A stretch of 64,000 nucleotides of DNA. Source: an uncultured Methylococcaceae bacterium. GTDB taxonomy: Bacteria; Pseudomonadota; Gammaproteobacteria; Methylococcales; Methylococcaceae. The DNA is taken from NCBI GenBank assembly GCA_903859815.1, contig CAIOOA010000303.1, forward strand, positions 4,513 through 68,512, in the 5' to 3' direction. The number at the start of each line of letters is the position of its first letter. Within the stretch, counting starts at the first letter, position 1. A program made the translations under genes and the position numbers. Shown here piece by piece: positions 20,976 to 51,705 of the stretch. The notes below the pieces were generated by a model. That model worked only from the letters and a program-made list of their open reading frames with translations. It was not told the DNA's origin and did no database searches.

Positions 20976-21593
20976 TTAATTTTCAGATTCCGACTTTGGT
21001 TTTATCGGTTGCCACGCTGACGAACATTCCCTGACATAAGGATAGTAGCCTTTGGGATTGTCGCAATAATACCAGTAATTGGGTTCCAAGCCCGGAGGTT
21101 GTGGTGCAACCGTTTGCCAGCCCTCTGCACACTCTTTGACATGGGGATAATAACCCGCCGGATTTTCACAATATCTCCATTCTGAGTTAGGGGCAGGCTC
21201 TTGGGTTCCGCCTTGCTCGATATACACGGGCGGCGAGGTGGGTACGACAACAGTTGGGGGCGAATAATAATAGGGATAATAATAGTAAGACGGCCCATAG
21301 TACCAGGGTTGACCATAATAGATGCCAAACCCTCCTCCGTAGCCTCCATACCCGCCGCCGTACCAGCCGCGTCCACCACCGTACCGGCCGCCAGCATAAC
21401 GACCACCGCCATAATAACCTCCCACATGGTGGCCGCCCCCATAGTAGCCACCGCCATGACCACCTCCCCAACCGTGGCCTCCACCAAATCCGCCTCCGAC
21501 GCGACCTCCACCTCCATGGGCGAAAGCCGAACCGATTAGGGCCAAGCTGGCTAGGATCATTACCAGTAAGCAATGGATAGTGTGTTGTTTCAT
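20976..21593 (-). CDS. secreted Gly/Tyr/His-rich low-complexity protein with two C-terminal YC-NP-GYYP-V-EC-W motifs
   Basis: 205 aa. Signal peptide ...LIGSAFA|HGGGG, about 100 aa of G/Y/H/R repeats, then WRYCENPAGYYPHVKECAEGW and WYYCDNPKGYYPYVRECSSAW. Confidence 0.6.
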   Translation of the reverse strand: MKQHTIHCLLVMILASLALIGSAFAHGGGGRVGGGFGGGHGWGGGHGGGYYGGGHHVGGYYGGGRYAGGRYGGGRGWYGGGYGGYGGGFGIYYGQPWYYGPSYYYYPYYYSPPTVVVPTSPPVYIEQGGTQEPAPNSEWRYCENPAGYYPHVKECAEGWQTVAPQPPGLEPNYWYYCDNPKGYYPYVRECSSAWQPIKPKSESEN

Positions 21594-21867: not shown

Positions 21868-23808
21868 ATGGCCCACAGAAGATCGAAGATCAACATTGGC
21901 CTAGCTTGGCGGGCCTTTGTTTCCCTGTTCGTCCTATTTTGCCTGACCGCCTGTGTCCCGGCTGTCCGCGTGGCGAGGGTGGACGGTCAGGATGCCTATA
22001 AAATCATGACTGTCAATGCGTTGTCCAGCGAACAAGCCAGCGATTGGAGCCGCAACACGGTCAACGAATGGGGTTTGCTCAAACGTTTCGACGAACAGCC
22101 TGAAGCAGCATTGGCCGAACTGCGTGAAATCGTCACCAGTGGACGTGGTGGCCGGCGTGAATTATTCGCACTTGCCGAATTCTCCTTCCTTCACGCCAAA
22201 AAGACTGGCAAGAAACCCTACCATCTGGCGGCGGCCATCTACGCCTATGCCTATCTGTTCCCGACTAAATCCGAAGACTCAGCCGGCAAACTCGACCCGC
22301 GCAGACGCATATCCGCTGACCTCTATAATCGGGCCATCACCACGGCATTCAAGTCCAAAGAAGGCGGTTCAGTCGTGCTTGCTGCGGGTAAGTACCCTTT
22401 GCCGTTTGGAGAGATTGAACTGACCTTCGACCCGGAACAACTGAATTGGGGGGACCGTTATCTTGCTGATCTGACCCCAGTGACCGAGATCGAAGTCATC
22501 GGTATGCGAAACCGGCATCGGATTCCGGGTTTAGGGGCGGCGATGACGGCGCTTGCACTTCCCCGTGAGGGTGTGGATGTGCATAAGAGCTTGATTGCGC
22601 CTTCGGCCCAAGTGGCTGCCACCGTCATTCTTAGGGTTGAAAATGTGCGCGAAGGGATAGCCAGTGGTCAAATGAAGGGATCGCTTGATCTCTACAAAGC
22701 GAGCGAGACTGAAACCATCACGATGGAAGGCCGTGAGATGCCGTTGGAAATCGATGAAACCGGACCCATCGCCGTTCAACTTGCGGGTTCCCCCATTTGG
22801 AAGCAAGAGTTCTATGGGTTTTTCGGTAGGTCGGCAATGAATATGAAATTGCCGGCGCTGATGTCGCTAGAACCCTACCGCCCCGGTAGGATTCCGGTCG
22901 TTTTCGTCCATGGCACGGAATCCAGCCCGGCGCGTTGGGCAGACATGGCTAACGATTTGCTCGCAGACCCGTGGATACGCCAACACTTTCAATTCTGGTA
23001 TTTCTTCTATGACACCGGCAATCCCATCGCATTTTCCGCGATGCTATTACGCGACAAGATCACGGAAGCGATGCGACGCATGGACCCACAAGCCAAAGAT
23101 CGGTGTTTGAACGAAATCGTGGTGATTGGGCATAGTCAAGGCGGGATGCTGACCAAGTTGACGGCTGTTGACACGGGCGACCGCCTTTGGAATACCGTTT
23201 TCAGCATTGCTCCTGACAAGCTACCCAAAACTGTCCACTCCCGCGAATTGTTGGAAAAGGCCCTCATCATCAAACCAGTGCCGTCTGTGAAGAGGTTAGT
23301 CTTCATCGCGACCCCCCACCAAGGAAGCTTCATCGCCAGAAACTGGGTCAACAACTTACTCAGGAAGCTTATCCAACTCCCCGCCACCGTTGCCACATTG
23401 CCCTTGCAAGCACTGAAGGCGGCGGGGGCTTTTAACAGTGAAACCGAATTTAGTAAAGGGGATCTTCCAACATCAGTGGACAATATGACCCCAGGCAATC
23501 CTTTCTTGGAGGGGTATAAAGAGATTCCGGTCGTGGAGGGAGTCCCCTATCACTCAATCATTGCCGTCAAACCGGAATTCCCGATCATTGTGGAAGGTGA
23601 CGACGGGGTAGTGAAATACACTAGCGCCCACCTAGACGGGGCTGTCTCTGAGCTAGTGGTGCGGTCATCCCATTCGACTCAAGCTGAACCGCAGACGATT
23701 CAAGAGGTCAGACGGATTCTGCATGTGCATGGAAATGAATTGGAACAAAGGGGACTTGAATGCAGCCCAAGCCAAACCAAACTGACCAACGCCGAACGCA
23801 ACCCCTAG
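21868..23808 (+). CDS. lipoprotein with C-terminal alpha/beta hydrolase (esterase/lipase-like) domain
   Basis: Lipobox LTAC after the Met at 21868. VFVHGTESS and nucleophile elbow VIGHSQGG. Confidence 0.65.
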   Translation: MAHRRSKINIGLAWRAFVSLFVLFCLTACVPAVRVARVDGQDAYKIMTVNALSSEQASDWSRNTVNEWGLLKRFDEQPEAALAELREIVTSGRGGRRELFALAEFSFLHAKKTGKKPYHLAAAIYAYAYLFPTKSEDSAGKLDPRRRISADLYNRAITTAFKSKEGGSVVLAAGKYPLPFGEIELTFDPEQLNWGDRYLADLTPVTEIEVIGMRNRHRIPGLGAAMTALALPREGVDVHKSLIAPSAQVAATVILRVENVREGIASGQMKGSLDLYKASETETITMEGREMPLEIDETGPIAVQLAGSPIWKQEFYGFFGRSAMNMKLPALMSLEPYRPGRIPVVFVHGTESSPARWADMANDLLADPWIRQHFQFWYFFYDTGNPIAFSAMLLRDKITEAMRRMDPQAKDRCLNEIVVIGHSQGGMLTKLTAVDTGDRLWNTVFSIAPDKLPKTVHSRELLEKALIIKPVPSVKRLVFIATPHQGSFIARNWVNNLLRKLIQLPATVATLPLQALKAAGAFNSETEFSKGDLPTSVDNMTPGNPFLEGYKEIPVVEGVPYHSIIAVKPEFPIIVEGDDGVVKYTSAHLDGAVSELVVRSSHSTQAEPQTIQEVRRILHVHGNELEQRGLECSPSQTKLTNAERNP

Positions 23809-23994
23809 GGCTAGTATAGGTCGAAGGCTTTTATTGTGTACTTAGATTTGAATATTGGAAACCCAAGGCTTGCTTAACAGTAAACAACTAGTTTTTGGCG
23901 GAATCAAAAAACGGATTCCGCCGTATGATGGAATGAATAGCCGTTCTAATTCGGCGGTTCAAATCCCTGTATCAGCTTTACAAACTAGCAACTT

Positions 23995-24471
23995 TCAATC
24001 ATCCAGCTCAATTTTCGTTATCTTCCCACTGACATCAATATCCAATTCCACTTCCTTGCCCTTTTCCTTTAATTCGATTTCATAGCCTGCCGGATTTCCA
24101 TCAGCCATTATCTTCTTTTTCACTTCCTTGATTTTCGCTTTCGGATAGGAGGTTTTGATGGATTCCATAATGTTTGCCGGAAGTTCGGAAACATTGATTT
24201 CCTCGCTAGTTTCAAGCAAGGTTCCATCGGCTGCATAATAATATTCATGCTCTAGCCCGTTTTCCTTATATTCAAGTTCATAAAAGGATTGTCCATCATG
24301 ATTTTTTACTTCATATTCAGTCACTTTTGCTTTAGGTTTCGCAATGGCAAAAGCATCCAATACCGCTTTAGGCACTTGGCTCTTGCTCACTTCCTTGTCT
24401 TCAGCTTGTACGTTGGCGGCGAGCAACCCGTCTATGACGATTAAAGCAATAATAGTTTTATAGAGTTTCAT
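23995..24471 (-). CDS. periplasmic PepSY-like (beta-lactamase-inhibitor-like) repeat protein
   Basis: 158 aa. Signal peptide. Two repeats of the ...YE(L/I)E..K..G.E.E(Y/L)... type. Confidence 0.55.
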   Translation of the reverse strand: MKLYKTIIALIVIDGLLAANVQAEDKEVSKSQVPKAVLDAFAIAKPKAKVTEYEVKNHDGQSFYELEYKENGLEHEYYYAADGTLLETSEEINVSELPANIMESIKTSYPKAKIKEVKKKIMADGNPAGYEIELKEKGKEVELDIDVSGKITKIELDD

Positions 24472-24521
24472 TTTTTTCTCCTAGTGGTTTATATTGAAAA
24501 GAACAAAATATTTGGTATCTA

Positions 24522-25205
24522 TTATACTATGTGTGTCAATCCCCTAAGTTTATCCATCCACTCTCGAAAATGCCTACATTCTAGTTCTATTGTAGAGAGG
24601 GTAATGCGCTCGGCAGCGAGTGGTCCATGTCGTGTTTTGTGATAAGTTGGTTTGAGCAAATCTTCTAAGCGTTTTGAGGGCTTCGTAGCATAACCTTGGT
24701 TTATGTGTTCAGGCGTTTCAAATTCTTTGCGCACTTGTTTCAGCTTAATTAAATAATTAATCCATGAAGGCTCAACGCTTGTTAGCGCTTCAATATCGGA
24801 AAAAAGTAGACCTTCAAATTCATAAGGTTGAATATACGGTATGAAACGATCCGGCGGCTGGAATCCAACTTGCTCCATTAAAGTATCATACAAAGCATTT
24901 TCGAGTATATTTACTTTATCGTACAAATCAGCTTTCTTATTGGCTTCGTCAAATCTTGGAAAGTCTGTATCTAATGCGTATAAATCAATGAATGTAGTCA
25001 AGAACAAATTTGATTTACTTCTCAAAGTATTCCGTGCATTAAATCTAAGTCGGTCAAAGGTTATGGCCCCTCCTTTACTGTCTTTGGATGTTCTTAATAA
25101 TTGAGGTTTTACGAAAACCTGTAAGCGTCGCAAAGATGGCGCAATAAGTCTTTTAATGAACTGCTCTTCTGTTTGCCCCTCAGCAATAACAATTACTTCC
25201 CTCAT
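24522..25205 (-). CDS. DUF4276-like small protein (TOPRIM-like N-terminal motif), partner of the upstream ATPase
   Basis: 227 aa. N-terminus MREVIVIAEGQTEEQFIKRL (strand-EG-x-TE), later TTFIDLYALDTDFP. Starts 4 nt after the ATPase stop. AT-rich. Confidence 0.6.
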   Translation of the reverse strand: MREVIVIAEGQTEEQFIKRLIAPSLRRLQVFVKPQLLRTSKDSKGGAITFDRLRFNARNTLRSKSNLFLTTFIDLYALDTDFPRFDEANKKADLYDKVNILENALYDTLMEQVGFQPPDRFIPYIQPYEFEGLLFSDIEALTSVEPSWINYLIKLKQVRKEFETPEHINQGYATKPSKRLEDLLKPTYHKTRHGPLAAERITLSTIELECRHFREWMDKLRGLTHIV

Positions 25206-25209
25206 TTAT

Positions 25210-26298
25210 CTAGGGTCTCCCGCCTAGGATATTACGCTTCCAAAGCTCACCCAGAGAATACTCTGCTAACCAACAAGATAGTTCATTTTCGCTGAAACGA
25301 CGAAAGACAGATGCATCATCTTCATAATCTACTACAACCACGTCTTTAGGAGATAATTCGTTGACGAGTTCGACTGATTGGGTGGATAGGATTAATTGCC
25401 GTTGATCTGATATCTGCTTCAGAATTTCAGCTAGAACAGTCACAGCATATGGATGTAAACCTAGTTCTGGTTCATCTATAATCACTGTATCAGGCAAAAG
25501 CTCGATTGGTTGTAACAACAGAGTTGCAAGACAGATAAAGCGTAGAGTTCCATCTGATAACATATGGGCTTTGAATGGTGTGTCGGGTTTTCCTCGTTGC
25601 TTCCATTCTAATTCAATATATTCTTGTTCAAGTGGGCGATGGATAAAATCATCAAAGAAAGGTGCTACTAAGCGAATAGTTTCTACAATTCGCATATATT
25701 GAGATGGGTGTTTCTCGTATAACATTCTTAAATATGCGGCAAGATTAGCAGCATCTGATTTTAGATATAAATTATCATTTCCTGCTTGTAAACGTTTAAC
25801 CTTTGCTGACTCGCTTGTATTTCCAAAATGATAATTATGCCAGTCTCTAATGGTCTCACGGACAGGTGTATATTCATCAGGATATTTTTGAGAGCTAAGT
25901 ATCATAGAGTTATCTTTGGCGATACTAATTGAAGCAATACCAGAATCTGGGAAGCTGTAGGAACCAAACCATATACTTTCGTTTTCAACTATTAATCTAT
26001 TATCAACAGTTGGCGATAGTCTGCAACTATAACCGCCAGAGTCAAAACAAACCATAAATTGCAACACATCAGTGGTTTCTCGTCCAAAATGTAATAAAGC
26101 ATCCGGGCCTCCTTGTTTTTGAACATATAATTGCAATTGCTGCTCATATATCTGATTAAGAAATCGAAAAAGGCCAATTAAATTGCTTTTACCCGCGCCA
26201 TTGGCTCCAATCAGCACGTTCAAATTATTAAGTTTGAAATCGCGCAGTTCTCGAATCGATTTGTAGCCAACAATACTCAGGGAACTAACAGCAGACAT
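25210..26298 (-). CDS. ABC/SMC-like (AAA_21-type) ATPase
   Basis: 362 aa. Walker A GANGAGKSN, signature-like MLSDGTLRF, Walker B TVIIDEPELGLHP, C-terminal LGELWKRNILGGRP. Confidence 0.8.
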   Translation of the reverse strand: MSAVSSLSIVGYKSIRELRDFKLNNLNVLIGANGAGKSNLIGLFRFLNQIYEQQLQLYVQKQGGPDALLHFGRETTDVLQFMVCFDSGGYSCRLSPTVDNRLIVENESIWFGSYSFPDSGIASISIAKDNSMILSSQKYPDEYTPVRETIRDWHNYHFGNTSESAKVKRLQAGNDNLYLKSDAANLAAYLRMLYEKHPSQYMRIVETIRLVAPFFDDFIHRPLEQEYIELEWKQRGKPDTPFKAHMLSDGTLRFICLATLLLQPIELLPDTVIIDEPELGLHPYAVTVLAEILKQISDQRQLILSTQSVELVNELSPKDVVVVDYEDDASVFRRFSENELSCWLAEYSLGELWKRNILGGRP

Positions 26299-26330
26299 AA
26301 CTTATAAGAAAAAATCGTTCATTGAAATAA

Positions 26331-27764
26331 TTATGCTTTTACATTCCAACTAATAAACCCCTTCAAATCCTCCACATCCGCATCCATGACTTCATAATGC
26401 TGGGGTAGTTTTTCCATCCCTTCCATGCTGACGGGGCGCTCTGGCTCACGTCCCAAGGCTTCTCGTATCGTTTCCTCAAATTTTGCGGGTAACGCGGTTT
26501 CCAAACAAATGAGCGGTAAACCGCTTCGACGCTGTTCAATACCCACTTTCAGTCCATCGGCAGTATGGGTATCGATCATCATGCCATATTCTTCCCAAGT
26601 CTTCCGAATCGTGGCAAGGCGATCAGCATGGGTGCTTTTGCCTGAGACAAAGCCAAAGCCGGGAAGCGCATCCCAATAAGGAGTACCCTTGATGTCAAAC
26701 GCCCCACCCGCGTCGACTTGCCCCCAAAACTCTCTCAATTGAGCCGGGGCGTGCCCGACTAGATCAAAGATGAAACGCTCAAAGTTAGAAGCCTTGGAAA
26801 TGTCCATGGACGGGCTACTGGTATGGAAAGTCTGGGTCGTGCCGCGTGGTCGGTAGACACCGGTGCGAAAGAACTCATCAAGCACATCGTTTTCATTGGT
26901 GGCTAGGATCAACTGGGCAATAGGCAACCCCATCATCCGGGCGATGTGACCGGCACAGATGTTGCCAAAATTGCCGGAGGGGACCGAAAATGCCACTTGC
27001 TCATCGTTGGATTGTGTCGCGGCGAAATAGCCCTTGAAATAATACACCACTTGAGCGGAAATCCGGCCCCAATTGATCGAATTGACCGTGCCAATTTTAT
27101 ACTTCGCCTTGAAAGCCAAGTCATTGGAGACCGCTTTGACCAAATCCTGGGCATCGTCGAACACACCGCGGACAGCGATGTTAAAAATGTTAGGGTCTTG
27201 CAAGGAGTACATCTGTGCGGTTTGAAAAGCCGACATTTTGCCATGCGGGGAGAGCATGAAAACCCGAATGCCACGCTTGCCGCGCATCGCATATTCCGCC
27301 GCCGACCCGGTGTCGCCCGAAGTCGCTCCTAGAATATTCAATTCCTCGTGTTGTTTGCCTAAAGCATATTCAAACAAATTACCCAACAACTGCATTGCCA
27401 TGTCCTTAAATGCCAGAGTCGGCCCATTGGACAGTTCCAAAATGTGCAAACCCGGTTCCAACGTGCGCAGCGGGGCTATTTGGCTAGTATCCGAATCGGA
27501 GCGGGCGTTGCCGTATACTTCAGGAGTATAGGTTTTTTGGGTAATGGCCTTTAGGTCTGCGGAGGGAATGTCTGGGGCAAATTTGGACATCACTGCAAAG
27601 GCCAAATCCGCATAAGACAAGGTACGCCATTGATCCAATTCTTTGCGGGTTACTTGCGGATATTCCTCAGGCAAATACAGTCCACCATCGGGCGCGAGTC
27701 CGCCCAGCAGAATTTCAGTGAAGGTTTTGGAGGGGGAGTTACCACGGGTGGAGAGGTATTTCAT
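26331..27764 (-). CDS. thrC: threonine synthase (long form)
   Basis: 477 aa. MKYLSTRG N-terminus and PLP-lysine region GPTLAFKDMAMQ. Appears full length. Confidence 0.93.
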   Translation of the reverse strand: MKYLSTRGNSPSKTFTEILLGGLAPDGGLYLPEEYPQVTRKELDQWRTLSYADLAFAVMSKFAPDIPSADLKAITQKTYTPEVYGNARSDSDTSQIAPLRTLEPGLHILELSNGPTLAFKDMAMQLLGNLFEYALGKQHEELNILGATSGDTGSAAEYAMRGKRGIRVFMLSPHGKMSAFQTAQMYSLQDPNIFNIAVRGVFDDAQDLVKAVSNDLAFKAKYKIGTVNSINWGRISAQVVYYFKGYFAATQSNDEQVAFSVPSGNFGNICAGHIARMMGLPIAQLILATNENDVLDEFFRTGVYRPRGTTQTFHTSSPSMDISKASNFERFIFDLVGHAPAQLREFWGQVDAGGAFDIKGTPYWDALPGFGFVSGKSTHADRLATIRKTWEEYGMMIDTHTADGLKVGIEQRRSGLPLICLETALPAKFEETIREALGREPERPVSMEGMEKLPQHYEVMDADVEDLKGFISWNVKA

Positions 27765-27795
27765 TTGGGATGCCTGTTTTTGTATATGGGCAGGA

Positions 27796-28509
27796 TTAAG
27801 GGGTCATCTCTTGTATAATCCTATCAACATCATTGTGAAAAACTTCAGCTTGTGAACAGATTTTGCGAATCGTATTCCAGTTATTATAAATGCTGTAAGC
27901 ATGACGTATGTATACAGTCTTTGATTTCCTTATGCGTTTTACTTTCGGTAAATTAGCTAATTGGGTCGCCATGCCTTGATTGCACTCAAGCTCTCGGAGT
28001 AGCTTAGCATCTTCATCTTCACGAAAAACTGCTGCGGCAAGCCAAGCTTCACTGGACTTGGACGGTATACAGAACACCGATTTTCTGCCTAAATTTGCAA
28101 CCCCCAACCAAGATAAAAAAACAATTTTGAGCTTTTCGATAGTATCTGATGCTGGTGGACAAGGTGATGAGCAAGGCAATGATGCCAAGGCTTCTTCCTG
28201 AGCCATATTAGCTACGTTAACACCATAGTCGGCATATGATTTGTCCGCTACGTCGGCATCCAGATGTAAAATTACCATGTCGAAAAGTTCAAGTGTCGGA
28301 TCGCTCTCTACCGTAGCACAGCCCCGTACATGAAATTCCCGACACCACTTCATCACTTTGCCCCAGCCCTCTCCAAGATCCGGTCGAGTCCCTACCGGCG
28401 GTTGGTAGGTCAGAATAAATGGACAAGGCAATATTGCTTTTAACGCTGCTTCGATAATGACCTGATCAGTAGTCCCTTCCGCCACCAAGGCAATACGTAA
28501 ATCAGACAT
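27796..28509 (-). CDS. small TOPRIM-like protein (E ... DxD), partner of the upstream ATPase
   Basis: 237 aa. IALVAEGTTDQVII (Glu11) and MVILHLDADVAD (Asp84-x-Asp86). 8-bp overlap with the ATPase gene. Confidence 0.55.
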   Translation of the reverse strand: MSDLRIALVAEGTTDQVIIEAALKAILPCPFILTYQPPVGTRPDLGEGWGKVMKWCREFHVRGCATVESDPTLELFDMVILHLDADVADKSYADYGVNVANMAQEEALASLPCSSPCPPASDTIEKLKIVFLSWLGVANLGRKSVFCIPSKSSEAWLAAAVFREDEDAKLLRELECNQGMATQLANLPKVKRIRKSKTVYIRHAYSIYNNWNTIRKICSQAEVFHNDVDRIIQEMTP

Positions 28510-29704
28510 TCGGTATCGCCCCTAGGCTCCCCATCAGCCAAAGCCTTGAAAGTGGATAGTCATTGTTGAGTGCTGCCAAACGATCTGTTAGCAGGATGCG
28601 GTTGACTCTGGTATGACCGTCGCTGTTGCGATCCACAGCAAACAGACGAATTTCATTATCCGTTAAATCAAGTCCATCAAGTACGGCAGGGTTATGTGCG
28701 GTGAACAGGATTTGTCGCCCCTTCTTGTTAACCAGATTTAGCCATTCACCGAGCTTGCTGGTTAAGCGGGTCACTAGACGTGGATTTAAAGCTTGGTCTA
28801 GGTTGTCTATTGCAAATAATCTAGGGGATTTGGGAGATAGGCAGAGTATCGCCGTGAACAGCACATACAATGCACCTTCACTGGCATCCGAGGCAGTAAG
28901 AGTATTGCGCTCTTTCCTCATATAGCGGTCAGTGAACTTTAAAACTTCTTGGGTGCGCGCCACAGAAGGTGAAAGTAGGGAACCTGCCGCATTTGTCGCT
29001 TCGATGTCAACAACCCAATCAACTAATTCAAAGACGCTGTTTAGAAGGTCTTCGTCCTTGTCGAGAATGTCTTTGCGCAATTCTGCGAATGCTTCAGCTA
29101 AGCGACCACCCGAAAGCCCGACTGGTTCCCGTGATTGGGGATCACCCACCATGCCGCGCAAAGCAGGGGTGTTGGGGGAGTAAATCGCGTAATTTTGCAA
29201 GCGCCGCATCAGTTTAAATGCCTTATTTTCCTTGTTTAACTCCAAGATTTTCAACGCTGCAAGTCCCTGTGTCGAGTCTAGATTCTTCTTACCGCGCACT
29301 CCGTCTGATACGATTTCATTTTTTCCATCGTCAGTTAAAAATTCGGTTTTAAATGCCCAAGCCGGTTCCGGGTTCTCCAATGGATTAAGCAGCGAAATCC
29401 GATATTCCTGTTTGTTGATACCCGAAGCGGAAATAGCAATATGCGCTGGGGTTCTTTCAGTTTCAAAAGAAGATTTATAAAGGCGCGGTAAGCCGGGGCG
29501 TACACCACGACGCAACAGGGCTTCGTCATCCACCACTCCATTCGCCGCTGCGCCTAGTACACCAATTGCCTCTAAGATATTGCTTTTGCCTACGCCATTG
29601 GCTCCAATAAAACAATTGACCCTACCCAATTCCAAAGTCATTTCAGGGATAGATTTGAAACCGTTGATTGTAATTTTGCGAATCAATGAAATCTCCAAGT
29701 ACAA
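28502..29704 (-). CDS. ABC/SMC-like ATPase with non-canonical Walker B
   Basis: 400 aa. Walker A GANGVGKSN, signature-like ASDASEGALYV, Walker B position reads RLFAIDNLDQALNP (DN instead of DE), FTAHNP. The C-terminal LSRLWLMGSLGAIP is similar to the tail of the 25210-26298 protein. A likelier start is the TTG at 29686, preceded by GGAG. Confidence 0.75.
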   Translation of the reverse strand: MYLEISLIRKITINGFKSIPEMTLELGRVNCFIGANGVGKSNILEAIGVLGAAANGVVDDEALLRRGVRPGLPRLYKSSFETERTPAHIAISASGINKQEYRISLLNPLENPEPAWAFKTEFLTDDGKNEIVSDGVRGKKNLDSTQGLAALKILELNKENKAFKLMRRLQNYAIYSPNTPALRGMVGDPQSREPVGLSGGRLAEAFAELRKDILDKDEDLLNSVFELVDWVVDIEATNAAGSLLSPSVARTQEVLKFTDRYMRKERNTLTASDASEGALYVLFTAILCLSPKSPRLFAIDNLDQALNPRLVTRLTSKLGEWLNLVNKKGRQILFTAHNPAVLDGLDLTDNEIRLFAVDRNSDGHTRVNRILLTDRLAALNNDYPLSRLWLMGSLGAIPNV

Positions 29705-29835
29705 TCTGAGTAGTTTTCTCGATGACTTTTAGCACCTTGAATCCATTTATGGTTCGCAATAAACATTAAAATCCAAGGCTTTTGTGCGAATCATTCAGCA
29801 AAACTGCATAGACACTTGCAATTCAATACCTCAAT

Positions 29836-30507
29836 TTATCGGTTTCCGCTCGTCGGCTGAACAGGCTTTGCCGCTACAGGTTTACTACTCGAAGACGTTG
29901 TCGGTTTTGCCGTGCTGGTATTCTTCGCAGCCGGTTTTGCAGTTTTGAGTGCCTTCAAATCTGCTTGGGCAACCTCATCCCCTTGCTCGGCAGCTTTCCT
30001 CAGCCAGAGCGCGGCTTGCGTTACATCCTTCTTCACGCCTTGACCATCGCGATAAGCCAAGCCGAGATTATGTTGCGCCTGGGGGAAACCTTGATCGGAA
30101 GCCTTGCGGAACCAGTCGACTGCTTGCCCATAATCTTGGGTGACACCTTGCCCTTGCTTATAGAGTATTCCTAGGTTATTCTGCGCTTGCGGCAAGCCTT
30201 GGAGGGCGGCCTTGCGATACCATTGAGCGGCTTGTGTGTAATCTTGATCCACACCTTGACCCGTATCATAAGCCATGCCTAAATTATATTGGGCTTTGGC
30301 ATCACCTTGATCGGCCGCTTTGCGGAACATTTCAGCGGCAAGTTTGTAATCCTTGCGTTGATACGCATCCTTCGCAGCTTGCATGGACGATTGCGGGGTT
30401 TCCTCGGTGCCAGTCTTCACCGCTTGGGTACAGGCAATCAAACCCGAAACTGAAACCCAAAAGACCACACCCAAACGTAACACGGAACGCAGTTTCATCT
30501 TCATCAC
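29836..30507 (-). CDS. Sel1-repeat lipoprotein
   Basis: 223 aa. Lipobox LIAC. About 4 Sel1 repeats (AQWYRKAALQG.P.AQNNLG..Y..GQGV..D). Ser/Pro/Lys-rich tail. Confidence 0.8.
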   Translation of the reverse strand: MMKMKLRSVLRLGVVFWVSVSGLIACTQAVKTGTEETPQSSMQAAKDAYQRKDYKLAAEMFRKAADQGDAKAQYNLGMAYDTGQGVDQDYTQAAQWYRKAALQGLPQAQNNLGILYKQGQGVTQDYGQAVDWFRKASDQGFPQAQHNLGLAYRDGQGVKKDVTQAALWLRKAAEQGDEVAQADLKALKTAKPAAKNTSTAKPTTSSSSKPVAAKPVQPTSGNR

Positions 30508-30653
30508 CTTAGTTTAAAATTTTTTAGGAAACCATCCAGTGCGGTAACCAACCTTTTCAAGCGCTATTCACATGGGCAGGGTGATTGAATAATCCTTGCC
30601 CGTCATCCAGTATCACTCGTCAGTTACCCATAAGCTCGCAGAACGAATTATTA

Positions 30654-44104: not shown

Positions 44105-47100
44105 CTAATGATAAACCACTGCGCCCTTAGTATTCCTATTGGAAGCAAACAAATGCGCAAATACCAAGTCTGCTTTGTATTCGATTTCATCGTTTGAATA
44201 AGATTCCGGCGGCAGATTCATTAATAAATGGTCGATGATGCTGATTTTGACTTTGGCTTGGGCGCTGGCTTTTTCACGCCAATGATCGATTTCCCGCATC
44301 AAACTATCGAGTTTTTCCGACAATTCCACGGCGACTTTCTTGATTTTTTCCTGTTCACCCGGCTTAAGCTTGTCTTTGGTCAACAAATCGAAGACGGCAA
44401 GTTGTGCTTCGCTCCCCAAGCCTGCGCGGATATAGCGCCGCTCTTCATGGTCGAGTTCGCCCTCGAATTTCCTGAGTTTATCGAAAACTTGCTGAATGGC
44501 GACTGCATCCTTGTCCTGATTATAGGCTTTGACGATGTTCAAATAGCGCTCGTAAAGGTTTACCCGAGTGGGGTTGGCAGCAATCATGGCTTGCAATCGT
44601 TGCTCAAGCTTTTCGCGCAAACTCAGCGCTTTTAAATGATGGCAATTGCGTTCAAACTCGGCTTGCAGCCTGGAGAAATCAAAATTCGTGAGATCATAAC
44701 GTGCATGTTTCTTCACGGCTTTATCTTCGAGCGTCATGCCCACCGCAGTATCCACGAGTTGGTATAAGGACTTTAGCATGGCGGTAATATCCTTGGCAGT
44801 GCGAACTTTTTGAATACCTCGATTCAAGGCATTCAACGCAGATTCCTCCGGGTCATACTCAAACAAACCGGGGTCAGGAAAAAGGCCCAAGCGACGAGTT
44901 TGAATATCGGCAAGCAATAGCTCATAGGTTTTGCGGCTCTCGTCAGTGCGACAGAGCGCATTAGCCCCCAATAGGATCAGATGCTGTTTTTCCTCGCCCT
45001 TAGCTTGCATCAAATCAAACAAATCAAACCCCAAATCGGACAAATGCTGTTTGGCGAGTCGAATACTGTCTGCATATTCCGCCAATGCCTCGGAATTATC
45101 GAGCAGAGTTTTTTCTTCGTCGCCCTCCCCTTCCTTACCGATTCGGTTTCCCTTGGCAAAGGTCGCCAGCGCCCTGCGCAAGCTTTTTAACATCCCGTTA
45201 TAATCGATAATCAAACCATTATGCTTGCCCTGATAAACCCTATTGGCACGGGCAATGGCTTGCATCAAAGTATGCCCCCGCAAGGGTTTATCCAAATAGA
45301 GGGTAGACAAACATTTCACATCAAACCCCGTCAGCCACATCGCGCAGACAATGGCAACGCGGAAGGGATTCTCGGGCTTTTTGAATTCCAATTCCAATTT
45401 ACGCTTGACCATTTTCTCCCGGTGCTTTTCGATGTCAAGCCCCCATTGCTTGAATTCCTCCACTTCGCCTTGCTCGGGGGAAATCACCACGCAAAACTCC
45501 GTCGTTTTCATCCACTCGACTTGAACCCGCAACTGCTGCAAATCTTCATCCGGGGTACTGCCCAATTCCGCATAGCGGGTTTCCTCGACAATCACCCAAG
45601 TTTCCAATTCTTCGATTTTTTTATTCCATTTATCCTCAATGAGTTCAAACATCTTCACGCAAGTAATTTTATCCAAGCAGACGAATAACGCCTTGCCGGT
45701 TTGATAGCGTTGGTGATAATGGTTGACGAAATCCTGCGCCACTTTTTCTAAGCGCTTCGGCGAAGTCAGTATGGGATAATCACGGGCCAATTTCCGATAA
45801 AGCCTTTCCTCTTGTACTTCGTCCAATTCACCGCGTTCCTTGGCGGCATCAATCCGTTTAGTGATGCGCTCGTTAATCGCAGGGTCCACCAGGTGCAAAC
45901 TTTCCCCCCGGCTTTCATAATACAAGGGCAAAGTTGCCCCATCCGCCACCGCCCGTTGAAAATCATAAATCGACACATAATCGCCGAATATCTCCCTCGT
46001 CAATTGCTTGTCTTGATTTTCAATTAACGGCGTTCCGGTGAAACCAATGAATTTGGCATTCGGCAGGGCTTTGCGCATATTCAAAGCCAAGCGACCATAT
46101 TGGGTCCGATGCGCTTCATCGGAAATCACAATAATATCGTCGCGTGTACTATAAGGTGTGGCTGGCGGAGAGTGGAATTTATGAATCAGGCTGAAAACAT
46201 AGCGATGGTCTTGCCTCAGCAAACTTTCCAAGCCCCTGCCATTGCGAGCTTGAGCGCGTTTGTCAGTGGATGCGCCCACGCAGGAAAATGTGCGGAAAAT
46301 TTGACCATCCAACTCGCTGCGGTCGGTCATCACCAGAAAGGTATATTGTGCGGACAGTTTGCGATGAATTTTTTCGCTCAAAAAAGCCATCGAATACGAT
46401 TTACCCGAACCCTGCGTATGCCAGAACACCCCTAACCTGCCCTTCTCCATATCCTGCTTGATTTCGGGATCATCCGACACCAAGCGGTTAACCACCCGGT
46501 TCACGCCTAGGAATTGATGATTGCGCGCGATGATTTTCTGCACCTCGTCTTCGCTGCGATCAAACAAAATAAAGTTTTCCACCAAGTCCAGCAACTGGGT
46601 TTTGTCCAACATTCCACGCAATAATACTGGCAGCAAAGGCTGGTCTTTCTTTGGTTCCGGGTCGTCTTCATCCAATCTCTTCCAACGGGAAAAATGCTCC
46701 CATGGCGTGGTAATCGAACCATAAAGCCCGTCCAAGCCATTGGAAAGAATAGCAAAGGCATTCCAATGGAACAACTGCGGAATGGTATCTTTATAATCGC
46801 TGAAATTGCCGTCAAAAGCGCTGCGAATATCCTTGTCAAAGCGCTTCAATTCGATGAACACCAAGGGCAAACCATTGACGAAACCGACCAGATCGGCCCG
46901 GCGTCGCCACAAGCGGCCTTGCACCCATAACTCCCGCACCACTAAATAGCGATTATTGCCGGGTTCGTCAAAATCCAGCAAGCGCAAGCGTTTTTCAATC
47001 ATCCTGCCGTCGGAATCGCGCAGTGTAATCGGAATGCCATGCTTGAGCAGTTCATATTTTTCCTCGTTGGCTTGCAGCAAGGTCTTGGCAGTGTCAATCT

Positions 47101-47344
47101 GCATGACTTGAACAAGAGCCTCATGATAAGCCTCTTCCGGCAAGCCGGGGTTTAGTCTGCGCAAAGCCGCATCAACATCCCGCCTTAATACCGTTTCCCG
47201 ATCAGACAATCGCCCCAACAAACTATCCGCCCCGAAGGTTTCCTTATCGAAAGCAAACACCGAATCCCAATGCAATTCCTTTTCCAATAACTCGGCGGCG
47301 GGTAGCTGGATGAGTTGGTCTTCGGAATAATCCTTGCGCGTCAT
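44105..47344 (-). CDS. hsdR: type I restriction enzyme R subunit
   Basis: 1079 aa. Helicase motif I WHTQGSGKSYSM, DEAH box VISDEAHRTQYG, long C-terminal helical region. The ORF is uninterrupted. Confidence 0.92.
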   Translation of the reverse strand: MTRKDYSEDQLIQLPAAELLEKELHWDSVFAFDKETFGADSLLGRLSDRETVLRRDVDAALRRLNPGLPEEAYHEALVQVMQIDTAKTLLQANEEKYELLKHGIPITLRDSDGRMIEKRLRLLDFDEPGNNRYLVVRELWVQGRLWRRRADLVGFVNGLPLVFIELKRFDKDIRSAFDGNFSDYKDTIPQLFHWNAFAILSNGLDGLYGSITTPWEHFSRWKRLDEDDPEPKKDQPLLPVLLRGMLDKTQLLDLVENFILFDRSEDEVQKIIARNHQFLGVNRVVNRLVSDDPEIKQDMEKGRLGVFWHTQGSGKSYSMAFLSEKIHRKLSAQYTFLVMTDRSELDGQIFRTFSCVGASTDKRAQARNGRGLESLLRQDHRYVFSLIHKFHSPPATPYSTRDDIIVISDEAHRTQYGRLALNMRKALPNAKFIGFTGTPLIENQDKQLTREIFGDYVSIYDFQRAVADGATLPLYYESRGESLHLVDPAINERITKRIDAAKERGELDEVQEERLYRKLARDYPILTSPKRLEKVAQDFVNHYHQRYQTGKALFVCLDKITCVKMFELIEDKWNKKIEELETWVIVEETRYAELGSTPDEDLQQLRVQVEWMKTTEFCVVISPEQGEVEEFKQWGLDIEKHREKMVKRKLELEFKKPENPFRVAIVCAMWLTGFDVKCLSTLYLDKPLRGHTLMQAIARANRVYQGKHNGLIIDYNGMLKSLRRALATFAKGNRIGKEGEGDEEKTLLDNSEALAEYADSIRLAKQHLSDLGFDLFDLMQAKGEEKQHLILLGANALCRTDESRKTYELLLADIQTRRLGLFPDPGLFEYDPEESALNALNRGIQKVRTAKDITAMLKSLYQLVDTAVGMTLEDKAVKKHARYDLTNFDFSRLQAEFERNCHHLKALSLREKLEQRLQAMIAANPTRVNLYERYLNIVKAYNQDKDAVAIQQVFDKLRKFEGELDHEERRYIRAGLGSEAQLAVFDLLTKDKLKPGEQEKIKKVAVELSEKLDSLMREIDHWREKASAQAKVKISIIDHLLMNLPPESYSNDEIEYKADLVFAHLFASNRNTKGAVVYH

Positions 47345-47400
47345 GAATGAATGCCCTAGCGTTGAGTCAGTTGCAAATTAGGATTATAGCCTTATGAAGT

Positions 47401-47590
47401 CAGTAATTCTCAGTTTGGCAACAAAAGGTTTCACGCAACGGCGCAACGAAGAGCCGCATTACGCAGTAATTCTCGGTTTGGCGTAAAGTCTTGGAGGTTC
47501 TGGCATCTCGCAACAAAAGGTTTCACGCAACGGCGTAACGAAGAGTCGCTTTACGTTGCGCCGTTGCGTCGTTGCGTGAGGTTTTCTTTT
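47401..47590. repeat. REP-like cluster: two direct copies plus one inverted copy of AAAAGGTTTCACGCAACGGCG(C/T)AACGAAGAG
   Basis: CAGTAATTCTC(A/G)GTTTGGC...AAAAGGTTTCACGCAACGGCG.AACGAAGAG occurs at about 47401 and about 47464. 47556-47585 is the inverted complement, giving a long hairpin. A related copy (GCGGCGTAACGAAGAG) lies at about 49277. Confidence 0.7.
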
Positions 47591-47659
47591 GGGACGATGA
47601 CATCACAATGCCTAAGTCATAGTTCTTCAGGTCATAATGTGAATTGCTGCCAAGCCAAT

Positions 47660-47716
47660 GGGCTACCTTGCCGATTTGTCCGGCATTCCCTTTGGCGGAA
47701 TGACGAGCCGGTTTCC
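47660..47716. repeat. REP-like element, copy A (directly repeated at 49164-49214)
   Basis: GGCTACCTTGCCGATTTGTCCGGCATTCC...GGAATGACG compared with GGCTATCCTGCCGATTTGCCCGGCATCCATGCCGGTATGACGG. Both copies are in the same orientation and they bracket hsdS. Confidence 0.7.
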
Positions 47717-47717
47717 T

Positions 47718-48971
47718 TCATGCGATTGATCTGATTTGACTGACATCTAATGCACCGGACATCAGCTTGGGGAGAAGCAGGTCGCGGGATTGTGCAAGTT
47801 GCATGTTCATTTCATGGAGATATATCCGTTGCCAAAGTAAATCATTTAGATATTTTAAACAAACATCTAATCCCCTAGGAATTAGCAAATTAATTTCTTT
47901 TAAATGCTTTGTTCCTAAATGCGCCACCGTTGCACCTTGAATTGTAGATTCATAATACTTAATTGGCTCAATTAGAGCAAGACTAACAAAAGCAAGTAAT
48001 ATTTCAACTTTTGGCCTGAATTTACAAACACGCTGAACCAGATAACCTGTTTTACCAGCCCAATTATTCATATGAAAAATTCCATCCATACCTATTAATA
48101 AATCTCCTCTTCTAACTAAATAGGATTCATCTATCTCTTCGATTGTATATGTATTTGATTTCATTTCAGGAATATCGCGTATTCTTATAATTTGCGTCCC
48201 TATTCCTTCGCAATTAAATAGATTAGCTTTGAATGGATAGCCATAAGTTACATCGCAAACTTCAAATAAATTGGCTTTCCTCCACCCCTCCGGCACTCCG
48301 TCTTTGATCGGCACGGTTTCATGCCCCGGAAAGCGTAGATTGACGAACCATTCGCGGTAGAGCAAGCGGGCGGATTCTTCCAGTAATTGAATGCGGCGTT
48401 GATTTGTTTTGATTAAATGGTCATAAGAAAGCAATATTTCTGCAATTTTGGCTTGAGTCTTTACGTCGGGGGCACGCACCATAACACGATAGATTCTTTC
48501 CGGTGCGGTATGTCTCACCTTAGTACCCGAAGCACTACCATTAATCTGATTACGGACTAAACTGGAGTTGAACAGAAAATATAAAAATAACTTATCCAAT
48601 AAATTGGTGTCGATATGATCGACTAAACCCAATCGTTGATTGTGAAGATAGCGGTTTTCTGAGGGTATAAGAGCCGAGCTTCCCAGTAATCCTGGCCCCT
48701 GTTCTGTCATAGCAATGATTAAACTACCTTTTTCTAAAATAAATGCCTTTGGAAAATCGCTAGTATAATAACGTTCTTTATCTGGGCGAATACGAAATCC
48801 ACCTTCTTCAAAAAAATTTCCCGGTGTTAGAACAATATAATCACCCTTATCTGAAAAAAATTCACCTTTAAAAGCATAGCCATGCTTTATATGAATTGCA
48901 TTTCCAAGAGCAAACTCATTCCATATCATGCCTAAATAAACCTTTAAATAATTTGTATTGATCGTCCCCAA
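47718..48971 (-). CDS. hsdS: type I restriction-modification specificity subunit
   Basis: 417 aa. Two AT-rich target-recognition halves. Conserved central spacer (RRIQLLEESARLLYREWFVNLRFPGHE) and C-terminal LLLPKLMSGALDVS. Confidence 0.88.
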   Translation of the reverse strand: MGTINTNYLKVYLGMIWNEFALGNAIHIKHGYAFKGEFFSDKGDYIVLTPGNFFEEGGFRIRPDKERYYTSDFPKAFILEKGSLIIAMTEQGPGLLGSSALIPSENRYLHNQRLGLVDHIDTNLLDKLFLYFLFNSSLVRNQINGSASGTKVRHTAPERIYRVMVRAPDVKTQAKIAEILLSYDHLIKTNQRRIQLLEESARLLYREWFVNLRFPGHETVPIKDGVPEGWRKANLFEVCDVTYGYPFKANLFNCEGIGTQIIRIRDIPEMKSNTYTIEEIDESYLVRRGDLLIGMDGIFHMNNWAGKTGYLVQRVCKFRPKVEILLAFVSLALIEPIKYYESTIQGATVAHLGTKHLKEINLLIPRGLDVCLKYLNDLLWQRIYLHEMNMQLAQSRDLLLPKLMSGALDVSQIRSIA

Positions 48972-48997
48972 GCTCTGGCGCTCATCAGGTTACACAA

Positions 48998-49400
48998 ATG
49001 CTGGAAGATCGTCATTTCGGCATGGATGCCGAAATCCAGCGTCCAGGGATGGCAAAATGGAACCTGTCGCAATGCTTAACGCAACCGACAAGTGACCTTC
49101 CATGGCCTGGATGCATTCGGGACTTCCTTGTCCCGAACCCTGCGGGCGGCGGAGCCGTGCAAATCGGCTATCCTGCCGATTTGCCCGGCATCCATGCCGG
49201 TATGACGGCTTTACTGAATGGCAGTGATGCAGAACATGGGAACGATAAGATATTATGTCTTACGCCAAGCTCGCAGCGGCGTAACGAAGAGAGCTTTATC
49301 GTCAACAACTCATTATAAACCATCGTAGGAGTGGGCCATGCCCACGAAAATAAGCTGTAGCCCGGATGTAGCCGCTTTGCGGCGAAATCCGGGATGTTCG
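48998..49400. repeat. cluster of REP-like elements
   Basis: 49010-49053 (CGTCATTTCGGCATGGATGCCGAAATCCAGCGTCCAGGGATGGC) recurs inverted at 56759-56803. 49164-49214 is copy B of the hsdS-flanking element. 49350-49398 matches the reverse complement of 56902-56950 at 48 of 49 positions. Confidence 0.75.
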
Positions 49401-49439
49401 TGGCACGTAATTTCCCAGAGGCAAATCCACTGCATATCG

Positions 49440-49775
49440 CCCATTCCAATTTCTTTTGGGCAAATCCACAACTTTTCCGCGAATCCAATTTCTTTTGGGC
49501 AAATCCAATTTGCTTTTCCGCGATTCCAATTTACTTTTCGGCAAAGTAAATTGGATTTGGCGAAAAGCATGTTTACTTTGGGCAAAAGCAAATTGGATTT
49601 GGCCGATTCCAATTGGATTTAGGCAAAAGCAAATTGGATTTTGCCGATTCCAATTGGATTTAGGCAAAAGCAAATTGGATTTGGCCGATTCCAATTGGAT
49701 TTAGGCAAAAGCAAATTGGATTTGGCTGATTCCAATTGGATTTGGGCAAAAGACAATTGGATTTGGCCGATTCCA
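49440..49775. repeat. iteron-like tandem array: 41-bp unit made of two half-units of about 20.5 bp with core AATTGGATTT
   Basis: The unit CCGATTCCAATTGGATTTAGGCAAAAGCAAATTGGATTTGG starts at 49603, 49644, 49685, 49726 and 49767 (period exactly 41). Degenerate copies in the opposite orientation lie at 49458-49540. The dyad CCAATTTACTTT-TCGGC-AAAGTAAATTGG is centred near 49540. Confidence 0.9.
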
Positions 49776-49921
49776 CAGCGATTTTATTGGAATTCCAATA
49801 GAAAAGCCCGGTTTCCAATTGACCTAGACGCTAAACCTGTTTGCTTTTTCCAGCCGCTTTCTGGCAAATTGTAAATCATCCCTGCTTGCCTGCCAAACCG
49901 AGCGCAATGGCCAACTTATTT

Positions 49922-51705
49922 CTATTTTAGCAAAATTTCAAAATTTTCTTGGATGCGTGCTGCCAATAAGACCGCTTTCTGATTCAATTCGTCCAATTCC
50001 AAATGAATGTCCGCCAAGCGTTCTTTGAAATCCTCCTCGTCTTCCTCTGGTTCCACTGTCACGCCGACATAACGGCCCGGAGTCAGGCTGTAATCATTGG
50101 CGGCAATCTCGGTGCGACTCACTAATTTGCACAAGCCCGGCACATCGTCGTATAGACCTAAGGGGAAACGATGGTGCAGCCAATGGGTTTGTTGGATGAA
50201 ATAAACCGCTTGCTTGAATGCTTCCAACACGTGGTCTCGAACACTGGGTTCTTGGTCTTTGCCAAAATCGGCTGAGGTCAGCGCCTTTTTCAATTCGCGG
50301 GCGCGTTTGGCGTTGAATTCCACCCCATTCAATAGGCGTTGAGAGCCTAAAGCCCGGTAATGCTTGTCGGCGGTATCCAATAGCTTGAGCCATGTTTTAT
50401 TCTGGGCTTCGACTTCGGTTTGGGCTGCTTTCAACAGCGGGATGAGCGTTTCCAATTCGGTTTGCCGCCGGACTTGGGCGGTATGCGGGTCTTTCTCGCT
50501 TGGTTCTGGCTCGACGACAACGCGGCCCAAGGTTTCGGTTAGTTTTTCGACGCTGGAGGGGGCTAGTGTGGGGGTTTGCGCGAGAGCGAGTTCGGCGAGA
50601 AAGGCGGGGATGTTCGGCTCACTTGAAATCAATTCGGCATGGCCTTGAAGGGAATCGGCAAAACTTCTTAGCCATCCAGCCAATTCACACAAGCTTTCAT
50701 TATGGGCCTCGATCCGCTGCGGCAAGCAGCTTAGCCATTTCGCCGACGTCTGTTGATACTGGCCGACTAGCGCGATGAATTTTTCCCGCTCGCCGCGATA
50801 AATCCACACGATGGCGCTCAGATTGGCGAGTTGTTCTTCGGTGAATACATGCGAGCGGGCGGATACGACATGGTAGACATGGCGGGCATCTATCATCAAC
50901 ACAGAATCTAGCAAATCTTCCGGCTTGCCTTTGTCGAAAAACCACAGGGTGCAGGGAAGGCTGCGGGTATAGAAGAATTTGGGTCCTATCGACATCATCA
51001 CATCGACATGGCCGGTTTCCACCAGTTTTTGCCGAATATCGCGGTCTTTGTTGCCGGCATCCGAGGCGCTGGAAGCCATGACAAAGCCTGCCCTTCCCGT
51101 GGCATTCAGGAAAGCATAGAAATATTGAATCCACAGGCCATTGGCGTTGGAAATGGCCCCGTTCTTGGCATTGGTTCCGGGAAGGCCAAATGGCAAGCGT
51201 CCGCCTTCACCCACTTGGCCTTCAACCCGTTTGGTATCGACCATGTCAACATTGAACGGCGGATTCGCCATGACGAAATCACACCGCCCGGTCAGCGTGT
51301 GTTGGTCTTCATAAAACGTATTGCCTTGCAAGATGTTGCCGTCCAATCCATGCACGGCGAGGTTCATTTGAGGATTTCGTATTGGTCCTCGATCAGTTGC
51401 ATTGCATCGTCAATCGCCTGACCTACATTCTGGCCCTGCGGAAGGGTGGCGAGGAAATGAAAACGGGCTTGTTCCGGCAAGAATATTGCCGCTTGTCCGG
51501 TGAAATCTTCCTTGCGCGGTTCGCGCAAGGGCTTTCCATCGCGCATAGGGAGTTTTGCCAACACCTGTTTTAATACCGCTTGGTATCGGTTGTCGGCATG
51601 ACGGAGAAAGATGAGTCCCAACACCGGCATGGAGTATTCCGCCGCCGTCAATTTGGAATTGGCGCGGAGTTCGTCCGCGGCTTCCCAGAGTTCAGTTTCT
51701 ATCAA
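49922..51705 (-). pseudogene. hsdM: type I R-M methyltransferase subunit with internal deletion (two ORFs overlapping at ATGA)
   Basis: 51705-51364 encodes the HsdM N-terminal domain (ELWEAADELR...) and stops. 51367-49922 begins MNLAVHGL...FVMANPPFNV (motif IV). No motif I (DPxCGSG-type AdoMet site) is present in either ORF. Confidence 0.7.

Follow-up and report, generated by a model that had tools for sequence, protein, structure and literature searches.

A stand-alone HEC-01 cassette beside thrC: a candidate defense module of an ABC-type ATPase and a predicted Toprim-like nuclease

Directly downstream of thrC, the threonine synthase gene, an uncultured Methylococcaceae bacterium carries two genes that raise the question of whether they form a defense module and, if so, of what kind. 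The stretch of DNA that we analyzed, called the window below, comprises 64,000 nucleotides (nt) of contig CAIOOA010000303.1 (assembly GCA_903859815.1, positions 4,513 to 68,512). An initial annotation had described the pair as a candidate defense module encoding an ABC-type ATPase and a DUF4276-like partner, and PADLOC indeed places it in a candidate system, HEC-01 (Hma-embedded candidate 01, PADLOC-DB v2). We consider it probable that the pair is an intact, stand-alone HEC-01, in which an ATPase controls a Toprim nuclease directed against phages or mobile elements, and that it was acquired horizontally beside thrC. The novelty of the pairing was overrated at first: HEC-01 was already catalogued as a candidate system, and the Toprim nature of DUF4276 is in print. 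What this locus adds is an apparently autonomous pair that is under selection and accessory, a conserved glutamine at the H-loop of its ATPase, and slots anchored on thrC whose cargo is swapped.

We took open reading frames (ORFs) from a six-frame ORF list and from the sequence itself. The genes of this neighborhood lie on the minus strand, in the order thrC (26331..27764; NCBIfam TIGR00260, 7.4e-69), HEC-01A (25210..26298), and HEC-01B (24522..25205). A 32-nt AT-rich spacer (26299..26330, minus strand) separates the thrC stop at 26331 from the ATPase ATG at 26298, so the module does sit right downstream of thrC. Between the HEC-01A stop codon (TAG, 25212..25210) and the HEC-01B ATG at 25205 there are 4 nt, ATAA, as had been noted. 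A Shine-Dalgarno-like GGGAG motif (25221..25217) lies 11 nt upstream of the HEC-01B ATG and thus within the 3' end of the ATPase gene, the junction spanning 25206..25221 on the minus strand; this placement is consistent with translational coupling of HEC-01A and HEC-01B. Homologous cassettes elsewhere have A/B junctions of 0-3 nt, likewise with GGGAG ahead of them.

Family membership of the ATPase is clear. The 362-amino-acid (aa) HEC-01A matches PADLOC model PDLC04175 (4.3e-139, 461.6 bits) from residue 3 to 362, on profile positions 5-362 of 363, and Pfam AAA_21 (1.8e-27, 97.6 bits; gathering threshold, 27); SMC_N and DUF2813 also match at the ends of the protein. Weaker PADLOC matches are to mad3 (3.1e-28), AriA (∼1e-26 and 1e-14), AbiLi (7e-21), Old and GajA (1e-14 to 1e-15), and PtuA. 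Its top NCBIfam match, MAD3 (3.3e-26), reaches 92.4 bits against a cutoff of 420, which makes HEC-01A a relative (paralogue) rather than an equivalog. In a sequence search of the PDB, the ATPase gave only weak, motif-level matches to PstB, AriA, the retron Ec78 ATPase, and OLD. All four motifs named in the initial annotation are present: Walker A, GANGAGKSN (31-39); the signature, LSDG (247-250); Walker B, IIDEPELGLHP (273-283); and STQS (305-308). The C-terminal tail reads LGELWKRNILGGRP (pattern LGELW...LGGRP). Gln307 occupies the H-loop position in place of His, STQS standing where, as the initial annotation pointed out, many relatives have T(T/A)HS. Among the 120 best HEC-01A homologues, STQS is found in 118 and SSQS in one; the Walker A, LSDG, and Walker B motifs are conserved in them as well.

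The partner, the 227-aa HEC-01B, begins with MREVIVIAEGQTEEQF (also given as VIVIAEGQTEEQF) and carries FIDLYALDTDFP at residues 72-83. Its assignment to DUF4276, proposed in the initial annotation, is borne out by Pfam (PF14103; 1.8e-47, 162.6 bits against a cutoff of 30.2), the match covering the whole profile (1-192 of 192), and by PADLOC model PDLC04188 (3.7e-73, residues 1-223). Profile searches placed HEC-01B in no housekeeping family, an alternative that the initial annotation had raised, and a Pfam search gave no match to DUF4435. Invariant across 28 DUF4276 homologues are E9-G10, D74, E129, E131, H167, and H193. We built a confident AlphaFold2 model from the alignment of these homologues (predicted local distance difference test score [pLDDT], 89.3; predicted template modeling score, 0.87). 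Its elements run strand-helix-strand-helix-strand, after which come helices and strand 4, and the C-terminal half is helical. E9-G10 comes directly after strand 2-8, D74 ends strand 67-74, and E129/E131 lie at strand 4; the position of the Toprim DxD motif reads D-L-Y, with D74 invariant and D79 and D81 variable.

Foldseek comparison of this model to the PDB returned credible matches solely to 6njx/6njv (probability, 1.00; E, ∼1e-3; template modeling [TM] score, 0.45-0.49), the matched region being the C-terminal, Toprim-containing part of the Xanthomonas OLD nuclease. In a viral structure library the top match was an RloB-like protein, while a PDB sequence-profile search with the DUF4276 alignment retrieved nothing even at an E value of 10. 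The Toprim assignment therefore rests on the moderate fold match together with the invariant Glu after strand 1 and the invariant Asp after strand 3. HEC-01B is predicted to be a Toprim-like metal-dependent nuclease, and the published assignment agrees: DUF4276 and RloB have been added to the Toprim superfamily, their catalytic residues being conserved, and DUF4276 has been tied to Mad4 (PMC12065111), and Payne et al. described HEC-01 as an ABC ATPase plus a TOPRIM protein, HEC-01B, whose metal site is common to BpOLD (bioRxiv 10.1101/2024.01.29.577857).

Departures from the canonical motifs in both proteins could be read as decay. Under such an explanation the pair would be an inactive remnant, the His-to-Gln change at the H-loop (STQS, where PDC-M31A, the ATPase of a second module upstream of thrC, has TAHN) and the retention of only one conserved Asp of the Toprim DxD having disabled both enzymes. 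We regard this as highly improbable, and conservation largely refutes it: STQS is family-wide, which makes Gln at the H-loop a fixed subfamily trait and not a lesion; D74, E129, and E131 are invariant in the 28 DUF4276 homologues; and neither ORF is truncated relative to its profile. Selection argues the same way. Between the window and the sister strain L093, the ratio of nonsynonymous to synonymous substitution (dN/dS) was 0.19 for HEC-01A, 0.09 for HEC-01B, 0.11 for the PepSY-like gene that follows them, and 0.09 for thrC. Because synonymous divergence was comparable among these genes and dN/dS was low, we conclude that cassette and thrC have been inherited together ever since these strains diverged and that purifying selection acts on the cassette.

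We compared about 10 kb around thrC in 80 related species loci, the closest thrC matches (81-83% identity) coming from Gallionella, Sideroxydans, and Nitrotoga metagenome-assembled genomes (MAGs). Judged by its thrC, the organism belongs near the Gallionellaceae and their relatives, and we treat it as a betaproteobacterium. HEC-01 and PDC-M31 were absent within that distance of thrC in all 80, where the usual gene order is aminotransferase-hom-thrC. HEC-01 is therefore accessory, and not the universally conserved neighbor of thrC that the initial annotation had also considered. The cassette is more AT-rich than thrC, as had been remarked; its guanine-plus-cytosine (GC) content of 0.38 is below that of thrC (0.51) and that of the window as a whole (0.47), and the dip spans about 23850 to 26330, taking in the PepSY-like gene. 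Elsewhere, too, the GC content of HEC-01 cassettes lies under that of their flanks. Homologues about 65% identical are scattered over Pedobacter, Thiotrichaceae, Deltaproteobacteria, and Sulfuriferula. HEC-01 is thus of horizontal origin, as shown by its low GC content, its patchy distribution across distant taxa, and its absence in relatives.

How such a cassette came to lie beside thrC is illuminated by the closest relatives, in which the flanks of thrC vary. The sister strains L093/L094 are 96-97% identical to the window from the thrC ATG through HEC-01A, HEC-01B, and the PepSY-like gene into the next gene; going upstream, similarity stops at the thrC start codon and resumes inside a Sel1 gene at about 29924. 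In the intervening slot (window 27765-29923 versus L093 198-2848, by sequence comparison), between the Sel1 gene and thrC, an Eco57I-like methylase and a BsuBI/PstI-type endonuclease, forming a type II restriction-modification (R-M) system, replace PDC-M31. Since PDC-M31 was swapped while HEC-01 was kept, the two modules of the window have separate histories. The closest other species, L009 (MAG MFD01476.bin.2.76; identities of 90% for the aminotransferase, 87% for hom, and 83% for thrC), has low-GC cargo in both slots (inserts 8679-9665 and 11525-13090): a PLD-like nuclease upstream of thrC and, downstream, a TIR plus ThsA_Macro protein and a DUF1810 gene, followed by recJ. L095/L096, whose thrC product is 86% identical in aa sequence, carry thrC-PepSY-HEC-01A-HEC-01B-PIN/NYN-recJ, with identities to the window of 66% for HEC-01A, 73% for HEC-01B, and 78% for the PepSY-like protein. 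Every contig whose thrC or Sel1 protein is identical to the window's had the same arrangement as the window, and no further slot variants appeared among them. From these comparisons, both flanks of thrC are variable slots with defense-type cargo (type II R-M, PLD nuclease, TIR-ThsA_Macro, and PIN/NYN protein) in the clade of the window. Farther out in the Gallionellaceae, the genes between hom and thrC are mainly small cupin and SRPBCC genes, along with one BrnT toxin and GIY-YIG genes, so the defense hotspot is limited to this clade and does not extend to the whole family. As a side observation, hom and thrC adjoin in most relatives, and L009 has one Sel1 homologue between them.

The L096 locus bears a possible trace of past rearrangement. 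Its HEC-01A is directly preceded by a relic, 51 nt long and in frame, of the 3' end of a thrC gene (L096 2930-2980; ADVKALRAFIVANAEG and the stop codon), and the spacer after the relic starts like the thrC/HEC-01A spacer of the window, being partly conserved; the thrC/HEC-01A junction is therefore either old or travels with the cassette. The relic may point to duplication and deletion, or to a transfer in which the cassette brought a thrC tail along. Direct and inverted repeats, tRNA genes, and integrases were sought around the island (23400-30700), and nothing meaningful was found; the closest tRNAs are at positions 280 and 51722. Given the homology break at the thrC ATG and the thrC relic ahead of HEC-01A, the flanks of thrC might constitute an integrase-free defense-swap locus, with recombination anchored on thrC and cargo expressed by read-through from thrC, an essential gene. 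We advance this only tentatively, and in combination with the idea that HEC-01 could act in the manner of PARIS, its Gln making the ATPase a slow or nonhydrolyzing, ATP-bound switch that would release the nuclease in response to a phage protein. The only notable repeat around the island, a direct one of 30 nt with 27 matching positions (26182-26211 and 29579-29608), corresponds to the Walker A coding stretch of both ATPases; in principle it could provide a homology patch for recombination deleting thrC, though nothing suggests that this has occurred.

Outside the thrC neighborhood, HEC-01-like genes are numerous: we counted 1571 DUF4276 homologue clusters and at least 8000 for the ATPase, and an AAA_21 gene stood directly ahead of the DUF4276 gene in every context fetched. 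In cold-seep genomes, HEC-01 has also been listed as one of the 12 commonest system types (PMC12881386). In two divergent Gallionellaceae (L087 6918-8675 and L092 6918-8675), HEC-01 lies between a dapE-methyltransferase string and squalene-synthase genes, with spacers of 32-34 nt upstream and 8-10 nt downstream, an arrangement that resembles an old insertion retained within housekeeping operons. A Thiotrichaceae MAG carries the pair between ftsH and a PemK/MazE pair. Counting the window, L087/L092, L090, L095, and plasmids, a stand-alone HEC-01 occurs in no fewer than five independent contexts.

These contexts bear on whether the pair can work by itself. HEC-01 was first found embedded in Hma systems (Payne et al.), and the window's copy might be a detached nuclease module of the Mad3-Mad4 type that needs methyltransferase, MADS, or Hma partners to tell self from nonself and would make use of R-M functions encoded elsewhere. 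DUF4276 is the Mad4 domain, the ATPase matches both MAD3 and PADLOC mad3, and a type I R-M system (44105..51367) lies 18 kb off in the window. In MADS, deletion of mad3 or mad4 lowers phage resistance, and mad5 could be deleted only alongside mad2 or mad3, from which the authors suggest that loss of mad5 alone is lethal (bioRxiv 10.1101/2023.03.30.534895); the latter finding would accord with methylation dependence of the nuclease. We nevertheless judge such dependence quite improbable here, since the MAD3 score of 92 bits against 420 argues against an equivalog, large MADS- or Hma-like genes are absent for 10 kb in both directions, the pair occurs alone in the contexts listed above, and the sister strains swap the adjacent R-M system and PDC-M31 while leaving HEC-01 untouched.

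In the reading that we favor, that of an autonomous defense system, HEC-01A would act as sensor and regulator, most likely as an ATP-dependent dimer, and HEC-01B, as a Toprim-fold metal-dependent nuclease, would be the effector; translationally coupled, the two probably form one complex. By analogy with OLD, Gabija, PARIS, AbiL, and Mad3-Mad4 of MADS, the ATPase would hold the nuclease silent. Sensing of a phage or other invading element by the ATPase would then license nucleic acid cleavage, so that the invader would be halted or the infection aborted. We infer the complex, its stoichiometry, its trigger, and its substrate (DNA or tRNA), as well as any antiphage activity of the window's copy. 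The literature agrees with the initial annotation that the mechanism of the ATPase-DUF4276 pairing is poorly characterized. In support of the favored reading, one HEC-01 representative protected Escherichia coli against at least one of the phages T4, T5, and T7 (PMC12881386), the deletions in MADS described above point the same way, and MADS3-4 and AbiL have been grouped with the ATPase-plus-TOPRIM systems (PMC11464382).

A number of observations weigh against a defense function or against the proposed mechanism. Another HEC-01 representative gave E. coli no protection against any phage tested (Payne et al., bioRxiv 10.1101/2024.01.29.577857), which leaves a single positive assay, with another homologue, as the support for antiphage activity; both published assays used homologues other than the window's copy. 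In HEC-01B the canonical Toprim DxD is incomplete, its second Asp being missing, and the TM score of the fold match is under 0.5. The H-loop change from His to Gln means that ATP hydrolysis may be slow or absent, in which case the analogy to OLD and Gabija may fail in detail. No HEC-01B homologue was found in a phage database, and only 13 plasmid records carry distant HEC-01 homologues, each beside an AAA ATPase. Finally, several homologous cassettes lie between housekeeping genes, outside defense islands; these settings fit the report that most of the shortlisted candidates were not enriched near defense systems (Payne et al., bioRxiv 10.1101/2024.01.29.577857).

Some of the same observations would be expected if the pair were not immune at all, being instead a selfish addiction-type module or a Rad50/RecF-like ATPase-plus-nuclease factor for chromosomal DNA maintenance or repair, which would owe its persistence to being difficult to lose or slightly beneficial. 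The negative E. coli assay and the failure to find HEC-01 in any phage of the database fit this alternative, as do the vertical inheritance with thrC under purifying selection and the co-oriented cassettes with very short spacers in housekeeping strings (dapE-methyltransferase-HEC-01A-HEC-01B-squalene synthase in the two Gallionellaceae). Against it stand the patchy distribution across phyla with a GC content foreign to the host, the absence of HEC-01 from most relatives, and the bona fide defense genes that otherwise occupy the thrC slots. In addition, one HEC-01 homologue did protect against phage (PMC12881386), and the characterized two-gene relatives that pair an ATPase with a Toprim protein (PARIS, AbiL, and Mad3/4) are all defense systems (PMC11464382). 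On balance, a nonimmune role appears unlikely to us, and a defense system remains the reading that we prefer.

The module on the other side of thrC helps to define what HEC-01 is not. PADLOC identifies it as PDC-M31, a family distinct from HEC-01, with PDC-M31A, the ATPase, at 28502..29704 (3.9e-186) and PDC-M31B at 27796..28509 (9.5e-92), both on the minus strand. The initial annotation had held that the two modules are not recent duplicates, that their ATPases share only the nucleotide-binding motifs and the C-terminal tail, and that their small partners share only an N-terminal strand. Our comparisons bear this out. Alignment of HEC-01A with PDC-M31A is confined to the N terminus with Walker A (44% identity, 41 aa) and the C-terminal half (26% identity, 149 aa). 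HEC-01B and PDC-M31B have no significant BLASTP similarity, and profile-profile comparison of DUF4276 with PDC-M31B aligned just the first 18-24 residues, around the A-E-G-x-T-(E/D) strand (E values, 0.27 and, over 24 residues, 0.026); limited as it is to this strand, the alignment does not demonstrate common ancestry of HEC-01B and PDC-M31B. The distinct families, and the swapping of PDC-M31 alone in sister strains, likewise speak against recent duplication.

Whether the two modules nonetheless share one architectural type, as was also claimed, is plausible and only partly upheld. E11-G12 is invariant among homologues of PDC-M31B, as is the classical D84-A-D86, and the confident model of this protein (pLDDT, 91.4) has strands and helices in the same order as HEC-01B, a Toprim-like arrangement. 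PDC-M31B has no Pfam match, including none to DUF4276, and Foldseek with its model found no credible match in the PDB. One PDC-M31B homologue carries the NCBI label "DUF4276 family protein."

The remaining genes within 10 kb encode two Sel1-repeat proteins (586 and 223 aa; 29836-32414, minus strand), inserted between hom and thrC, as well as the hom product, the PepSY-like protein, a lipase-like protein, and a histidine kinase, in addition to thrC and PDC-M31. The PepSY-like gene (23995..24471, minus strand; Pfam PepSY_like, 1.5e-12) encodes a 158-aa secreted protein whose N terminus resembles a signal peptide, and its GC content is low (0.40). It accompanies HEC-01 beside thrC in two lineages, L093/L094 and, in a different order, L095/L096, and it is absent from the HEC-01 loci of L087, L090, and L092; it is probably a passenger and not a component of HEC-01. 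Downstream of thrC on the minus strand, the first terminator-like site, a hairpin with a T-run that is a consensus match only (23910..23922), comes 3' of the PepSY-like gene. A terminator scan detected no such hairpin in the thrC/HEC-01A spacer, so read-through from thrC would be possible. No promoter-like site was found ahead of the ATPase gene; as counts of terminator-like and promoter-like sites in the scan equaled the expectation from shuffled sequence, transcription units here stay inferred.

Two further features of the window deserve mention. The type I R-M system (44105-51367, minus strand) consists of hsdR (44105..47344), hsdS (47718..48971), and an N6_Mtase ORF (49922..51367), next to a tRNA-Ala gene (51722-51797). 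About 950 bp separate hsdS and hsdM, and the hsdM ORF matches its Pfam profile from position 95 only; its start may be misset or truncated. At 20976-21593 (minus strand), beside a Gly-zipper lipoprotein, is a gene for a 205-aa Gly/Tyr-rich protein with GGGH/GGYYGG runs and two C-terminal Cys-containing repeats (YC.NP.GYYP.V.EC), for which there was no Pfam match.

HEC-01 is one of the more abundant candidate defense types in environmental genomes, yet it has been assayed only twice, with opposite outcomes, and the locus in the window leaves that picture unchanged. It does provide a clean natural example of an intact, selected, stand-alone cassette whose neighbors are swapped among close strains, which supports autonomy of HEC-01 and its membership in the defense pool. 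The H-loop Gln and the noncanonical DxD offer concrete handles for mutational study, and the slots anchored on thrC are relevant to how defense genes move without dedicated mobile elements.

How does this locus compare to systems already described? Core-gene-flanked defense hotspots in Pseudomonas and E. coli pangenomes hold varied defense cargo in one slot, without an integrase or att repeats. Like them, the slot in close relatives of the window holds different defense cargo between conserved core genes; here, however, the anchor is thrC itself, with slots on both sides, as judged from a small genome sample. With respect to HEC-01 proper, the pair matches both models end to end and agrees in adjacency, order, and architecture. 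It differs in lying beside thrC, outside any Hma system, and in being about 65% identical to the bulk of the subfamily. Mad3-Mad4 of MADS likewise consists of an AAA_21-type ATPase followed by a DUF4276 protein, but MADS and Hma require Mad6-8 and a methyltransferase in the operon, and the window lacks nearby Mad1, Mad2, and Mad5-8.

The C-terminal Toprim of OLD is the closest structure to HEC-01B (OLD and Gabija GajA: PDB 6njx, 6njv, 6nk8, and 6p74), and DUF2813/OLD-type ABC head motifs are common to OLD and the window's ATPase. In OLD and GajA, however, the ATPase and Toprim are fused in one polypeptide that keeps the H-loop His and the DxD, whereas in the window the two are separate genes, the H-loop position is Gln, and only a single Asp is conserved after strand 3; unlike in Gabija, no GajB/UvrD-like helicase is adjacent to the pair. 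AbiL (AbiLi ATPase plus AbiLii) is, like HEC-01, a two-gene combination of an ATPase and a Toprim-like partner, but the AbiLi match is much weaker than that to HEC-01 and the partner belongs to another family. PARIS also has two genes, encoding an ABC ATPase (AriA) and a separate Toprim-family effector (AriB, DUF4435) (PMC11464382). The AriA models match far more weakly than HEC-01A, and the partner in the window is DUF4276, not DUF4435; PARIS senses Ocr and cleaves tRNA. By analogy, PARIS is the likely working model for the pair beside thrC, with the ATPase as a scaffold or sensor that would release or activate the nuclease.

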